NCBI GenBank assembly: GCA_964005815.1
Contig: CAXFSR010000017.1
Span: forward strand, 1-64,000
DNA length: 64,000 nucleotides
Source of the DNA: an uncultured Nitrospinaceae bacterium
GTDB lineage: Bacteria > UBA8248
Direction of reading: 5' to 3'
Part shown: in pieces, positions 3,001-9,000 of the stretch
Layout of the letters: every line of letters starts with the position of its first letter
Numbering within the stretch: the stretch's first letter is position 1
Made by a program: the position numbers

Positions 3001-6000
3001 CGATTTAGGAGATTTAATCAGAAATAATTATCCATGGAAAAATGGAGAACTGCAAAATAATGGTTATTGCTATATCATTCCCGGAATAATTGGAAAATCT
3101 CTGCTATTCAAAGCAGTACGAAAGGCATTGTTTATTACTACAGGATACTGGAAAAGTGTTTCTCTGAAACATTCCTTAGGAAAACATGAATTATGTGTCG
3201 AAGAACCGTACATCATAAAAAATAGTTTTTTTGAAAGTTTAAGGGATGGAGCGCATAAAGAATGGAATGCGTTTAAGAAGGGACTTGTCCATATCTACAT
3301 GCAAGATAGATATGATATCGAGTTCTCCTGCTCTACAAACACAACTGCAATAAAAGAAACAAAAAAGCGTTTGAATTATATATTTTCAAGATTTTTGAAA
3401 ATATCAAGAGAACGCAATTTCCGAGGGAAACTCCTCATACAACCATCCGAAGTGGATGTCACAACAAATGATTCTAAATTCAGCAATGATCTAAAAAACT
3501 TATGCCCTAAATATAAGAAAAATAATCTTACAGAATTAATTTCTGGCACAGTCTCAAAGAGTATTCCAACCTTAAATCTTTATGATATTTTCAGAAACTG
3601 TAATGAATGCTATTTTTCTGATAAACAATGGAAAAATAACAACCATTGGAATAAAAAAGGAATACGATTGGCAGTCCAAGAAATTATAAAAGAATTTAAG
3701 TTCAAATAGGTCCTATAATTCAACAATTCTTACTTGAGGAAATAATGAAAATTGAAAATACAAATATTTGGACTATCAAAAGTAAGGTAGAACAAAAATC
3801 CCGTAACCGATATGGAGCGGTGAATTTTTTAGAGAGGACCCTTCTTCGACTAGAAGACGAAAATGGCAATGAGGGGTGGGGAGAAATGATGCCTATTATT
3901 TTCACTACCGAGAAAGCAGAAAATGCCACAAAGGTTATTCAAAACATCACAGAATCACTTAAAGAAATGCCAGAAATTGAACCTATTTCAAACTCAAACG
4001 TGATAGATAGTCTTCAGGATTTTTCTGAACTCAAGGCAGCCCGTTCCTCGATCGAATGTGCGTTGCTAGATATTGAATCTAAAAGAGAACAAAAATCCTT
4101 CGTGGAGAAACTGGAAGGTAGTCATACTAGTGTAAGTTTAGATGGACCCATTGGCCTGGAATCTCCTGAAGATGCAATACGTAAAACAAAAATGTATCTA
4201 ACTGAAGGTATTTCGACTGTAAAAGTAAAAGTGGGAGTGAACGTAAGGGATGATGCAAACCGCCTTCTCGCATTAAGAGAAGAATTCGGAGATGAAATCG
4301 AAATAAGAATGGATGCCAATGGTGGTTATACCGACGAAGAAGTCTTTGAATTTTGTAATTTGATCTTGCCAGTTGCAGTTCAACATTTTGAACAGCCAGT
4401 TCTTCCATCTAATGAACGTTGCTTTGAAATTTGCAGAGAAATAAGAGAAATGGGAATTCCGGTCGCGGCAGATGAATCTTTATTCTCACTTCAAGATGCA
4501 GAAACTTTAGTCCAAGAAGACGCATTAGATGTAGGAGTTATTAAAATTTCTAAATTCGGCGGAATACTAATAGCGAAAAAAATTGCTACCCTGCTCGAAA
4601 GTGCAGGGAAAAAATGCGTAATCAGTGCATCTTATGAATCATTAGTAGGAAAATCTATGGCCTTGGCTCTCGCCTTATCTTTAAACAACACCGACCTTGC
4701 TCATGAGGTTGGACACTTTGCAAAAGAACCTACCATCACCGAATGGAAACATAATAATTCAAATGGAATCATGTCGTATGGGCATTGCATTGGACTTGGA
4801 GCAAAAGGAGATGTAGAAAAAATCAATTCTATCGCAACAAGTTCTATTTGATTTTTTGAATTTTAGTTTACTATCAAGCTATTTCTTCAGGAAATTCTTC
4901 CGGCCACTCATCTATAACCGCTTGAAGATAAGCTTTCAATTCCGCAGGATCTTTCTTTCGATTAAGAGAACGTTCAATATAATTTTTCTCCTCAATCGGC
5001 ACTTTCATTGCATCGTTAAACTTGTTTCTCATATCTAGATAGCAAATCGTCATCGTAAGTTCGACTAAGGCGACATCTGATAAATGATTGGAGACATTTT
5101 CGTAAATATCATCACGTTCACTAGCTGTTCCCATAGTAACATGTTCGGACCATTCAATAATTGCACGATCCTTTTCAGAAAATTCAGGAGAATTCTTATA
5201 TTCCCCTGAGCGCATCATTTTTTGCAATTCGTCAGAAATACCAACCGATCGCCCGACCGGTTCATTATGGGCAAGTCAATACGCACATTCATTCACCTGA
5301 CTCGTTCTGATTATGGCTAATTCTTTTGTTCTGGTTTCTAAAACAGAACCAATTCCTTGTCTCATTAATGTAGAGGTAAGAGGCAACATAAATTTTGTAG
5401 CAAACGGCTGATTTGCCATAACCATCCATGAATTCGGTGTTCTACTGAGGAGTATATCCGCATGTTTGTATAAGCGAGCGACCTCTCCTTTTGCTTCATC
5501 TCTGATAATCCCTGGTACTCGGTCCAATTGAAACCTCCATATTATAAATTAATTTATTTAAATCATTATAAACGGGAATAGATGAAAATGAAATTTGTCT
5601 TTTTTAAGTAATGAACTACAATGGATATTATTTTCAAAATTAGGAGAAAAACGTTGAACGAACAACCATTAGATCCTCGTAAAGATAGTTCAGTTCCTGG
5701 AGAGAGAACCATTGACAAACCTGAACTACCAAAGCAAGGCTACGCTTTTACCATGTCTGCAAGCACAGAAACTGTAGAAGGAAAAGGGCAACTCAAAATT
5801 GGTTATCACAGAGATTTTGAAGTCCTATGCGATGAACCAGCAAGGATAGGAGGGGAAGATTCACACCCACAACCTCTTTGTTATATTGCTATGGGAATTG
5901 GTTTCTGACTGCTCACACAACTTGCGCGGTACGCGCACATGATGAAACTCTCTGTTGGAAAAGCAACCGTAAATGTAGATCTGGATTATTTTTTAAAGGG

Positions 6001-9000
6001 TTCAGTACTAAAAAATACCGTCGAATCAGGATGCTCTGCTGCTAGAACACATTTTATCGTAAATTCGGACGAGCCCAAAGAGAAGATTGAACAACTTATC
6101 AGAAATGCAAAACAGGGTTGTTTTGCTGAAAAAATGTTACAAGCAGCCGTTCCACTAACTAGCACAATCGAATTGAACGGTGAAAATTTTTCTATTTAGG
6201 AATATCGGAGCATTCATATGGACATTGATAAATCTGTAAATTTTGCCCCGCTCAGTCCTTTAAGTTTTCTAGAAAGAAATCAATGGGTCTATAAAAACAA
6301 AGAAGCGATAATGTATGGTCTCCAAAAATATACTTATGGAGAATTTTCAGATCGAGTTCAGCGATGTGCCTCCGCTTTAAAAAATGCAGGAATACAATCA
6401 GGGGATAGAGTTGCTTACCTGTGTCCAAATATTCCGCCTATGCTAGAAGCACATTTTGCCGTACCACTACTAGGTGCCATCTTGGTAGCAATGAATACAC
6501 GTCTTTCTCCAGATGAAATTGCCTATATTTGTGACCATTCTGGAGCAAAGGTTCTCGTAGCGGATACTGAACTCGCAATTCCTTTAGATTCTCATAAAGA
6601 AAAGTTTTCTAAAATTGAAACTTTTATCAATGTCATTGACGAACAAGCTGGTTTTCGTGAGAAAGATGCCATATTTCAGGGACCAGAATACGAAAGCTTT
6701 ATAAATTCATCAGAAAATAATCAATTGCCATGGAAAATAGAAGATGAACTCACCCCAATCTCTATTAATTATACTAGCGGAACGACAGGAAAACCAAAAG
6801 GAGTAATGTACACACATCGAGGTGCCTATTTAAATGCCCTCTCCGGGATTCTTGAAGCTAAAGGTTCTGTGTACATGAATTATTTATGGACACTCCCGAT
6901 GTTTCACTGTAATGGTTGGTGTTATCCATGGGGAGTCACGTCTGTTGGAGGAAGACATATATGTCTTAGGACAAACGAACCTACAGAAATTTTTAGATTA
7001 ATAAGAGAAGAAAAGGTGTCACATTTTTGCGCAGCCCCAACTGTACTAACAGGATTAAGTAATGATCCTGCAGCAAAAGACGGTCCTTTTCCTCAACCCG
7101 TAACGGTGATGACTGGGGGGGCTCCACCTTCTCCAACTATCATATCAACAATAGAAGAAGAACTAGGTGGAACAATAGTACATGTATATGGATTAACAGA
7201 AACCTATGGCCCACATACTGTTTGCACATGGAATCCCGATTGGGACACTCTCAATAATGAAGATCGTGCACATTTAAAATCAAGACAAGGTGTACCATTT
7301 GTCATTACGGGAGAGTGTGATGTTAAAGACGACGAAATGAAAAGTGTTCCGTGGGACAAGAAGACACAAGGTGAAGTAATGATGAGAGGAAATACGGTTA
7401 TGGCCGGGTATTATGAAAATCCCGAAGCAACCGAAGAAGCATTTAGGGGTGGCTGGTTTCATAGTGGAGATATTGCGATAACATATGAAGATGGATACAT
7501 CGATCTACAAGATAGAGCAAAAGATATAATTATTTCCGGCGGTGAAAACATATCTACGATTGAAATAGAGAAAGCTATTTCATCTCATCAGTCTGTTCTG
7601 GAAGTAGCGGTAGTTGCAGTTCCAGATGACAAATGGGGAGAAGTACCAAAAGCATTTATTGTCAAAAAAAACAATGCAAAAGTTACAAGCGAAGAAATTA
7701 TAGAACATGTAAAATCAAAAATCGCCAGATTCAAAGCTCCTAAATATGTCGAATTTGGAGAACTGCCAAAAACTTCAACTGGGAAGATACAAAAATATAA
7801 ACTCCGTGACCAAGAATGGGCCGGCAGAGAAAAAAGAGTAAACTAAACCACGACTACCACTTTGAGTCATTATGTCTCAATCGCTTTTTTTGCAGCTCGA
7901 AGAGCATGATTTGTTTTTGGAAATCCTATATAAGGGCACAAAGAGACAATTGCTTCTATAACTTCTCCAGACGGAACACCTTGATTCATCAAACCACGTG
8001 TATGTGTTTCAACTTCTTCGGGTAGATCTTGTGCCGCGGCAGCAGCTACAACCAACATTTCTCTAGTTTTATTGTCAAGAAGTCCTTGATTCCAACAAGT
8101 ACCAAAACAATATTCCACAATAGATTTCGAATGATCTGGAGCTATATCTTCAAATTCTGTGTATGAACCAGAGAGCCCATCTTCACCATATACTCCAAGA
8201 GACTTTCGAATCTCAATTCCTTTTTCATATCGATTATTTTCCATTTTTACCTCCTAAGATAAAATATATTTATATAAAAAAAAGACAGAGAAAACTCTGT
8301 CTTTTTTACAATATAACACTTAGAAGAATTTCAAAAACAGAACTAACGCGAATAAAACTCTACAACTTTCGATTCATCTATATCTAGATTTAACTCTGTT
8401 CTTTGGGGATATCTAGTAAAAGTTCCCTTCATTTCCTCTTGTAGAACTTCTACCCATTCACAAATTCCTTTTGAAAAATTCATATTTAATGAATCAACAA
8501 TCCTTTCTTGCTTTTTTGCCTTCTCACGAATCTGTATATTATCACCTTCTTTCACCATATATGAAGGCACATTCACTACAACATTATTCACCATTATAGC
8601 TTTATGAGAAACAAGTTGTCTTGCCTCTGCTCTTGTAGAAGCAAAACCCATCCTAAAAACTACATTGTCTAAACGGGATTCTAAAATAAGAAACAGATTT
8701 TCTCCCGTCACACCTTTAGCTGCAGATGCTTTCTTGTAGTAGCTTCTAAATTGCTTTTCTTGAATTCCATACATATATCTTAATCTTTGTTTCTCGCGGA
8801 GTTGCTCCCCATATTCAGTAAGCTTTCCTCTTTGATTGGGATGTTGCCCAGGCCTTTGTTCTATTTTACATTTGTCCGCTATAGGTCGTGACCCACTCTT
8901 TAACGATAGGTCCATTCCCACACGCCTCATCCTTTTACATTTTGGGCCTACATACCTACTCATTCATCATCCTCTTTTTTGATAAATTGCAAAATTAAAC

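Follow-up and report, generated by a model that had tools for sequence, protein, structure and literature searches.

The 64,000-nt stretch of DNA analysed here (the window) forms the start of contig C17 in the genome of an uncultured Nitrospinaceae bacterium. Under translation table 11, it contains two neighbouring genes that each appear as two halves split at a TGA codon: an AhpD/CMD-like gene on the minus strand (83 and 117 aa) and an OsmC-like gene on the plus strand (95 and 86 aa). Are these genes broken, or does each TGA encode selenocysteine (Sec)? We are confident that both are intact selenoprotein genes whose UGA is read as Sec with the help of SelB and a hairpin, and that this oxygen-respiring marine bacterium, with a genome of 2.24 Mb, has at least 40 such genes in total. 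The Sec reading is supported by family matches that span the TGA, by the Sec machinery encoded in the genome, by SECIS-like hairpins and by TGA conservation, from which we infer Sec insertion itself as well as the catalytic roles and substrates of the products.

Our reading of the frames agreed with a preliminary description of this locus, which had placed the two genes back to back. Each has one in-frame TGA, at the position of a redox cysteine in its solved homologues (Table 1). Both genes start with TTG, preceded by GGAGG 6 nt upstream in the AhpD/CMD-like gene and by AGGAG in the OsmC-like gene.

Table 1. Features of the two candidate selenoprotein genes in the window, and selenocysteine-related loci elsewhere in the genome.
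Feature	Contig	Position	Strand	Remarks
AhpD/CMD-like selenoprotein gene	C17	4877..5527	-	217 aa with TGA read through; true stop TGA at 4874-4876
AhpD/CMD-like candidate Sec codon (UGA)	C17	5276..5278	-	codon 84; motif C-A-Y-U within NECAYULAHN (CxxU)
SECIS-like hairpin, AhpD-like gene	C17	5240..5265	-	starts 13 nt after the U of UGA; loop GGGC; -11.6 kcal/mol
Divergent intergenic region	C17	5528..5653		126 bp; contains both ribosome-binding sites (direct sequence reading)
OsmC-related selenoprotein gene	C17	5654..6196	+	181 aa with TGA read through; stop TAG at 6197-6199
OsmC-like candidate Sec codon (UGA)	C17	5906..5908	+	codon 85; motif GIGFULLTQ; at first conserved Cys of OsmC
SECIS-like hairpin, OsmC-like gene	C17	5923..5937	+	UGCGCG-GUA-CGCGCA; 17 nt after the U of UGA; -7.8 kcal/mol
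DsbA-like selenoprotein gene	C17	153918-154598		newly added as the 40th
tRNA-Sec	C37	27175-27271		anticodon TCA
SelA	C60	1160-2530		567.6 bits, above curated cut-off
SelB	C60	3425-5311		401.9 bits, above curated cut-off
SelD	C49			one in-frame TGA (Sec-containing); 337.9 bits, above curated cut-off

The OsmC-like protein matched the NCBIfam model NF041052 (OsmC_like_Se) over model positions 2-144 of 144 (8.5e-51, 171.7 bits against a cut-off of 95), and Pfam OsmC at 2.5e-13. It is one more member of the OsmC_like_Se family, matched at full length, and we found no structural difference from it. U85 and C154 align with both cysteines of PDB 3cje, and the second cysteine lies in a conserved GCF motif. 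The first conserved cysteine of OsmC, which corresponds to U85, is presumably the peroxidatic one. The genome carries four copies of the NF041052 family together with one more distant OsmC-type gene.

The AhpD/CMD-like protein scored 27.7 bits with Pfam CMD (PF02627; cut-off 23). It fell below the equivalog cut-off of 310 for the NCBIfam YciW-related (seleno)protein model NF053654 (66.1 bits, 3.3e-18) and below the cut-off of 81.8 for the peroxidase-related model TIGR01926 (44.9 bits), and therefore we place it solely in the broader CMD/AhpD superfamily. Its CAYU motif aligns with the CAYC (CxxC) motif in the core helix of PDB 2ijc and 2o4d. Like the Cys homologue PA0269 represented by these structures, it has the CMD core, with CxxU aligned to CxxC. 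Unlike the solved homologues, which have 145-165 residues, it has an additional C-terminal extension of roughly 40 residues.

Each UGA is followed, at SECIS spacing, by a small G+C-rich hairpin. In the OsmC-like gene, the loop (GUA) begins 23 nt downstream of the U in UGA, and the hairpin sequence GCGCGGTACGCGC is invariant across 10 orthologues whereas adjacent synonymous sites vary. This hairpin uses codons that are rare in the genome (GCG, 10.9% of Ala codons; CGG, 2.5% of Arg codons). In the AhpD-like gene, the loop (GGGC) begins 24 nt after the U. RNAalifold returned no consensus structure for 15 AhpD-family windows. A core helix that we specified ourselves from one member after this null result was 88% paired in the 15 family sequences; three of its five pairs showed compensatory changes, and its covariation score was 0.392 compared to 0.199 for shuffled alignments (0 of 500 shuffles reached the observed score) and at most 0.193 for slid controls. 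In the mechanism that we propose, SelB carrying Sec-tRNA(Sec) would bind the hairpin, which starts 13-17 nt downstream of the UGA, so that the one UGA of each mRNA would be decoded as Sec. Sec would then replace the second cysteine of CxxC in the AhpD/CMD-like protein and the first conserved cysteine in the OsmC-like protein. Sec at these positions suggests that both products are probably thiol/selenol-based hydroperoxide or disulfide reductases with the more reactive selenol at the catalytic position.

The divergent arrangement and the short common upstream region, both also found in the sister genomes G002 and G003, raise the question of whether the two genes form a single functional module co-regulated from the shared 126 bp, in which the AhpD-like protein would for instance be the dedicated reductant of the OsmC-like peroxidase. 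In mycobacteria, AhpD reduces a peroxiredoxin, which is in line with such a module. However, the adjacency is confined to the genus: more than 200 kb separates the two orthologues in each of the complete genomes G010 and G014, and no close AhpD orthologue is present in G001. As neighbours within the genus only, the two genes provide nothing to show that their products act jointly, and we regard the module as improbable.

To place the two genes in their genomic context, we examined the complete assembly (2,243,625 bp in 64 contigs, 35.3% G+C, 97.18% complete, 0.48% contaminated). Our six-frame scan and family searches yielded 40 selenoprotein genes with 41 Sec codons, that is, 17.8 genes per Mb, well within the range of a selenoprotein-rich organism as defined by six or more such genes (Peng et al. 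2016, PMC5029168). The preliminary description had counted 39 genes and 40 Sec codons; about 39 stood in the families that it listed, and the total rose with the addition of the DsbA-like gene. All 25 of its completely given places proved to be single frames devoid of TAA or TAG, with the TGA in a redox-type motif. The tRNA-Sec, SelA, SelB and SelD that it reported are likewise present (Table 1). Family matches spanning the TGA included GrdA (1e-61), the GrdB family (1.6e-129), rSAM_CUAEP (9e-173) and ogt (7e-27), as well as UGSC (two genes), ArsC_rel_Se_1 (two genes), SelW/T/H, deiodinase_rel, and DSBA and Prx types. Most of the set is peroxidase- or thiol-oxidoreductase-like. Less usual members are a Sec-containing O6-alkylguanine-DNA alkyltransferase (P-U-H-R), a CoA-transferase subunit and a MerT-like membrane protein, the latter with a weak Pfam match (17.2 bits, cut-off 32.9). 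As previously described, Sec formate dehydrogenase is missing: none of the five molybdopterin oxidoreductase genes in the genome contains an in-frame TGA.

We observed that hairpins are enriched downstream of the accepted TGAs. In a search window of 8-28 nt downstream, picked after the first folds had been seen but applied identically to controls, and using our own criteria rather than a published SECIS model, a hairpin of -5 kcal/mol or better followed 39 of 41 UGAs, compared to 77 of 236 control Cys codons (means of -7.95 and -3.83, respectively; Mann-Whitney p = 2e-13). The two remaining UGAs had no hairpin of this strength. A G was found among the first three loop bases for 39/41 UGAs and 111/209 controls, and the minimum free energy of a 63-nt window was -12.6 for UGAs compared to -8.6 for controls (p = 5e-11).

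Altogether, 116 candidates were examined. The large ones, with both flanks longer than about 150 aa, each proved to be a pair of neighbouring genes in the same frame (for example asd and MTAP, DnaB and Alr, or Obg and ProB). The end of an Ldh_2 gene (C42:22123-23202, ...NSC-TGA-NFT) resembled a C-terminal CU tail; because no hairpin was found in its SECIS window, we consider its TGA an ordinary stop. No family match was obtained for 28 short candidates (searched in one library each, and one of them in both), which resemble low-complexity antisense frames.

A mixed bin, containing strain duplicates or contigs of another selenoprotein-rich organism, could have inflated this count. Both ArsC-like genes belong to a duplicated segment (86% identity) extending as far as the end of contig C11, and several contig ends have stretches in common that are 86-99% identical. 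Nevertheless, non-self matches of at least 80% identity total only about 16 kb of the 2.24 Mb, and of the selenoprotein pairs they affect that of ArsC alone. Furthermore, the estimated contamination is low, the genes are distributed across more than 20 contigs, eight genes being on the 264-kb contig C17, and the same paralogue sets occur in three sister genomes. Inflation of the count in this way is thus very unlikely.

The two-ORF structure of each gene under table 11, in a metagenome assembly of 64 contigs, could also mean that the TGAs are real stops in pseudogenes or split genes, or that they result from sequencing or assembly errors. This explanation is already contradicted by our data and its probability is slight. 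A single family model matches both flanks of the TGA, and hairpins are enriched downstream. Nearly all matches among relatives, from about 21 to 95% identity and in up to 24 genomes per family, carry the TGAs of both genes at the corresponding alignment position. Homologues of both genes bearing TGA were present in 18/18 genomes of the same family and in 5/7 genomes from the second sampled family of the class. Almost every AhpD-like match had one TGA, the exceptions being two without a stop, one with TAG and one with two TGAs. Every OsmC-like match at E <= 1e-27 that spans the position had one TGA, the stop-free matches at this threshold being one side only of split or fragmentary genes. Elsewhere in the set, the TGA was kept in 17/17 full-length orthologues of the DsbA-like gene, in 8/8 orthologues of the CoA-transferase gene (the gene of this genome included; all paralogues, at 51% identity or less, are stop-free) and in 3/3 sister genomes for the MerT-like gene.

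Sequencing runs also argue against errors: across the runs from three studies that cover them, both TGAs were unchanged, and so they were in a contig of a variant strain that differs at 21 other positions. The AhpD-like TGA was unchanged in two DNA runs and in the single RNA-library run that covers it (X6). The OsmC-like TGA was unchanged in two DNA runs and was bridged by RNA-library contigs of two runs (X6 and X9); such contigs may include DNA, and bridging says nothing of translation.

If TGA were a general sense codon (Trp or Gly) under an altered genetic code, this would account for the 6267 in-frame TGAs with open flanks and for the many frames that lengthen on read-through, but the likelihood of such a code is negligible given that TGA ends 192 of 1062 long ORFs, including the AhpD-like gene itself, that 51 of the 116 candidates are adjacent genes or short spurious extensions, that the accepted TGAs fall at Cys-aligned redox positions, and that a tRNA-Sec with a TCA anticodon is encoded together with SelA and SelB.

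With decoding of UGA as Sec as the preferred reading, we considered the lineage that carries this set. The genomes nearest to ours in a SelA scan of genome contigs, three close MAGs, bear the NCBI labels Nitrospinaceae or Nitrospinota. No NarG/NxrA-type enzyme was found in this genome or in five of five family members checked, and hence none of the six looks like a nitrite oxidiser. The organism had been called an aerobic heterotroph: a heme-copper oxidase supports the first term, whereas heterotrophy is not established, since a weak ATP-citrate-lyase-type match makes autotrophy possible.

In Table 2 of BSepDB (2026), the ten bacteria with the most selenoprotein genes include three MAGs of the GTDB phylum UBA8248 (54, 50 and 48 genes), which NCBI assigns to Nitrospinota, Nitrospinaceae or Nitrospinae. 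Our nearest genomes share these NCBI labels, and our genome has fewer genes (40). At 2.24 Mb it may also be smaller, although section 11 and Table S1 of BSepDB give no sizes. Neither the names of the three nearest MAGs nor "UBA8248" was found among the listed entries of the BSepDB supplement, which gives genomes without counts. In gene number, our genome is comparable to Syntrophobacter fumaroxidans, for which at least 39 genes are given (PMC5029168), while 57-63 are given for the Olavius Delta 1 symbiont (PMC13188914). In contrast to these two anaerobes, it combines a heme-copper oxidase and Sec-free molybdopterin oxidoreductases with a set dominated by peroxidase- and thiol-oxidoreductase-like proteins. 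In ocean-sampling metagenomes, AhpD-like proteins account for 9.5% of the selenoprotein genes (PMC9402790). All families of the set are already known marine selenoprotein families, and findings of this kind are already catalogued in the form of families, NCBI models and a 2026 database with similarly labelled MAGs in its top ten. Therefore, the set is less novel than the preliminary description implied: it is unusually dense, not unprecedented.

Throughout the sampled family, AhpD-like and OsmC-like genes with an in-frame TGA are numerous. The larger relative G016 (3.9 Mb) has 24 of them, compared to 11 in our 2.24-Mb genome, a similar or higher density, and if the same proportion holds for its other families, G016 would surpass the published record of 63 genes. 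We tentatively raise the possibility, which we hold to be rather doubtful, that this oxygen-respiring marine genus (genomes of 2.0-2.2 Mb) and the surrounding family exceed all known organisms in selenoprotein gene density, with about 18 per Mb (roughly 1.8% of genes), in a set almost wholly peroxidase- or thiol-oxidoreductase-like and without formate dehydrogenase. If true, such a genus would directly contradict the current view that aerobes rarely keep selenoproteins, and the lineage would be a main source of the AhpD-, OsmC-, UGSC-, SelW- and PrdB-like selenoprotein genes that ocean metagenomes have yielded over twenty years.

According to a 2026 review, selenoproteins are rarely retained by aerobic bacteria. 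With 2.2 Mb, a heme-copper oxidase and a gene number equal to that of the long-standing record holder among cultured anaerobes, the genome described here is a clear counter-example to this rule. Because standard gene calling, which uses the standard code, splits or shortens each such gene, the redox and peroxide-defence capacity of the lineage is under-read, and selenium may be an important micronutrient for this marine group.

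Under the standard bacterial code, the region between positions 4877 and 6196 of contig C17 reads as four half-genes, two on the plus strand (95 and 86 aa) and two on the minus strand (83 and 117 aa). When the in-frame TGA that separates each pair is read as selenocysteine (Sec, U), the halves join into an OsmC-like gene and an AhpD/CMD-like gene in divergent orientation (see table). The OsmC-like product matched the full length of the NCBIfam model NF041052 ('OsmC-related (seleno)protein') with 171.7 bits (cut-off 95), as well as Pfam OsmC. Its U aligned to a Cys of structure 3cje, and the second Cys ('GCF') is conserved. 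The AhpD-like product, which carries the motif N-E-C-A-Y-U-L-A-H-N, passed the cut-off of Pfam CMD (27.7 bits, cut-off 23), and its C-x-x-U aligned to the C-x-x-C of the solved structures 2ijc and 2o4d. We assigned it only to the AhpD/CMD superfamily because its scores for NF053654 (66 vs 310 bits) and TIGR01926 (44.9 vs 81.8 bits) fell below the curated cut-offs.

Both TGA codons are conserved among relatives. With the OsmC-like protein as query against 30 relatives, every match at E <= 1e-27 that spanned the position contained exactly one TGA, and the matches within this range that lacked a stop came from split or fragmentary genes and covered just one flank of the position; OsmC-like matches were present in all 18 genomes of the same family. 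Nearly all matches to the AhpD-like protein at E <= 1e-10 also had one TGA, the exceptions being two without a stop, one with TAG and one with two TGAs. Furthermore, both codons were unchanged in two marine DNA runs, each of which carried the whole stretch, and the AhpD-like TGA was still kept in a variant-strain contig with 21 differences. Contigs from RNA libraries bridged the OsmC-like TGA (run X6, 5663-6058; run X9, 5829-6062) and the AhpD-like TGA (X6, 5150-5317); such contigs may include DNA and are uninformative on translation. The divergent arrangement recurs only in G002 and G003, two sister genomes, and the two orthologues are distant from each other in G010 and G014, both of them complete. 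For these reasons we do not claim a joint function of the two products.

Coordinates of the features discussed (contigs C1-C64 of the genome under study)
Feature	Location	Strand	Remarks
AhpD/CMD-like selenoprotein gene	C17:4877-5527	-	TTG start, GGAGG 6 bases upstream; 217 aa; true stop is a second TGA, 4874-4876
OsmC-like selenoprotein gene	C17:5654-6196	+	TTG start after AGGAG; 181 aa; G-I-G-F-U-L-L-T-Q
CMD gene without stop	C17:7888-8139	-	
DSBA-domain selenoprotein gene	C17:153918-154598	-	'EYHUPWAY'
tRNA-Sec	C37:27175-27271		anticodon TCA; one found by ARAGORN
SelA	C60:1160-2530		567.6 bits, above curated cut-off
SelB	C60:3425-5311		401.9 bits, above curated cut-off
SelD	C49		337.9 bits; one in-frame TGA in 'GGUGSK'; added by whole-genome family search
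AhpD-like selenoprotein	C36:103170-103748		added by whole-genome family search
CMD protein, 94 aa	C60:64265-64546		added by whole-genome family search
MGMT selenoprotein gene	C23:41280-41798	-	P-U-H-R
grdA and grdB	C9:104336-108366, with the CoA-transferase-like gene		
Double-CMD run without stops	C43:96463-100844		
ArsC-like duplicated segment	C11:38827-39542; C27:4083-4799		extends to C11 contig end
Ldh_2-family gene	C42:22123-23202	+	'...NSC'-TGA-three codons
ATP-citrate lyase domain match	C24:21442-21909	-	417-aa frame

The machinery for Sec insertion named in the preliminary description (tRNA-Sec, SelA, SelB and SelD) was recovered by ARAGORN and family searches. That description had also counted at least 39 selenoprotein genes with 40 Sec codons, and an independent scan combined with family searches raised the count to 40 genes with 41 Sec codons. 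A codon log-odds score was trained on 1062 long ORFs of the genome and applied to the 6267 in-frame TGAs with open flanks. We kept 114 on the basis of a two-sided coding score, the lack of a competing gene, or a Cys nearby, and added two previously listed places that the filter had missed. All 116 candidates were searched in three sets (60, 30 and 26) against NCBIfam or Pfam, and 15 were re-examined. A single family match across the TGA at a redox motif led to the acceptance of 37. Another 51 were rejected as adjacent genes or short spurious extensions, in which the domain stops before or begins after the TGA, and 28 had no family match in the library used for each. Whole-genome family searches with stops read through added three further genes. 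The filter overlooked five true genes, and 40 is therefore a lower bound. All 25 places that had earlier been given in full held up on translation and family searches.

The 40 genes comprise AhpD/CMD-like (11), OsmC-like (5), DsbA/Trx-like (5) and Prx-like proteins (3, one with U-P-Y-U), two each of UGSC, ArsC-like and Grx-like proteins (one of the last fused to DinB), and one each of GrdA, GrdB, PrdB-like, SelW-like, SelD, MGMT, deiodinase-like, MerT-like, CUAEP-tail radical SAM and CoA-transferase subunit. This amounts to 17.8 selenoprotein genes per Mb, or about 1.8% of genes in a crude set of 2199 ORFs. None of the five molybdopterin-oxidoreductase genes had an in-frame TGA; the genome therefore has no Sec-containing formate dehydrogenase, as previously stated. 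About 20 more CMD-domain matches in the genome lack stops, including a double-CMD run and a gene that lies 1.7 kb away from the two focal genes, and the CMD-domain family is strongly expanded.

All 41 UGAs were examined for downstream RNA structure. The 63-nt windows starting at the UGA folded at -12.6 kcal/mol, compared to -8.6 at random Cys codons (p = 5e-11), with a G+C content of 0.43 versus 0.36. A single hairpin of <= -5 kcal/mol beginning 8-28 nt past the U, a window fixed after the first folds had been viewed and applied identically to controls, was found at 39 of the 41 UGAs but only 77 of the 236 control codons (p = 2e-13). In 37 of the 41, the distance from the U to the beginning of the loop was 19-29 nt, and 39 of the 41 loops had a G at one of the first three positions, compared to 111 of 209 controls. 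The OsmC hairpin GCGCGGTACGCGC was identical in 10 orthologues and three paralogues within the genome, while synonymous sites around it varied; it contains two codons that are rare in this genome, GCG (10.9% of those for Ala) and CGG (2.5% of those for Arg). On its own, RNAalifold predicted no structure downstream of the UGA in 15 AhpD-family sequences. A helix that we specified after this result had a core 88% paired over the 15 sequences and compensatory changes at three of five pairs; its covariation score was 0.392 compared to 0.199 for shuffled alignments (none of 500 reached 0.392) and at most 0.193 for slid controls. An Ldh_2-family gene with '...NSC' before a TGA had no SECIS-like hairpin, and we consider this TGA an ordinary stop.

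Several other genes were followed across relatives. A DSBA-domain gene outside the window, absent from the visible part of the earlier list, encodes U-P-W-A where C-P-x-C is expected; its TGA, which all 17 full-length orthologues (40-94% identity) retain, is followed by a hairpin of -10.9 kcal/mol. The CoA-transferase TGA was found in all eight orthologues at >= 63% identity, the genome's own included, and was absent from every paralogue at <= 51%. The MerT-like TGA was kept in three of three sister genomes and in two weak distant matches. In MGMT (O6-alkylguanine-DNA alkyltransferase), Sec replaces the Cys of the active-site P-C-H-R motif; most orthologues have the TGA, and there is no stop in G006 or in the sister genome G003 (79% identical), a recent exchange between Sec and non-Sec forms within the group. 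The original observation holds, and reading in-frame TGA as Sec in this genome is correct and well supported.

The bin was rated 97.18% complete and 0.48% contaminated, and self-BLAST returned about 16 kb of non-self matches in total. The ArsC-like genes were the sole selenoprotein pair within these matches (86% identical, 717 bp). Their segment is either a genuine repeat in two copies, at which the assembly broke, or a remnant of another strain. Contigs C2, C6, C20 and C64, each about 1.7-2.1 kb long, are mutually 83-85% identical over almost their full length and represent a multi-copy element or gene family.

The three SelA genes closest to that of this genome (82-91% identity) come from MAGs labelled 'uncultured Nitrospinaceae bacterium' or 'Nitrospinota bacterium'. 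The family does not look like nitrite oxidisers, since no NarG/NxrA-type match exceeded 33.7 bits in this genome and none was found at E <= 1e-20 in the five family members searched, three of which are in one or two contigs. Heme-copper oxidase subunit I is present (501.6 bits), in support of the aerobic lifestyle proposed earlier. In this oxidase-encoding genome, grdA and grdB, both selenoprotein genes, are near each other and beside a CoA-transferase-like gene. A weak match to the citrate-binding domain of ATP-citrate lyase (34.2 bits, cut-off 26.8) bears on carbon fixation and makes the reductive TCA cycle a possibility alongside the heterotrophy proposed earlier.

Peng et al. 2016 (PMC5029168) define selenoprotein-rich organisms as having at least 6 genes, report that 78.3% of them are anaerobes, and credit S. 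fumaroxidans with at least 39. A 2026 review (PMC13188914) states that aerobic bacteria seldom keep selenoproteins and puts the largest selenoproteomes of bacteria at 57 and 63. The ten richest bacteria tabulated in BSepDB 2026 (PMC13326102) have 63 to 46 genes, and three of them (54, 50 and 48) belong to GTDB phylum UBA8248 and are labelled Nitrospinota, Nitrospinaceae or Nitrospinae at NCBI. The family mix found here is the same as the top marine families listed from ocean sampling in PMC9402790 (SelW-like, AhpD-like, SelD, UGSC, Prx and proline reductase). The selenoproteome of this genome is large and dense, consists of known families, and belongs to a lineage for which such richness was tabulated very recently.

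TGA-bearing members of the two focal families numbered 11 in this 2.24-Mb genome (4 OsmC-like, 7 AhpD-like), and sister genomes had 11-13 matches in 2.0-2.1 Mb. The relative G016 (3.9 Mb, 130 contigs) had about twice as many, with 24 (11 and 13, respectively). The richness is a trait of the whole family. A larger member may well have a greater total of selenoprotein genes, and the complete set of G016 might surpass 63, the highest number published.
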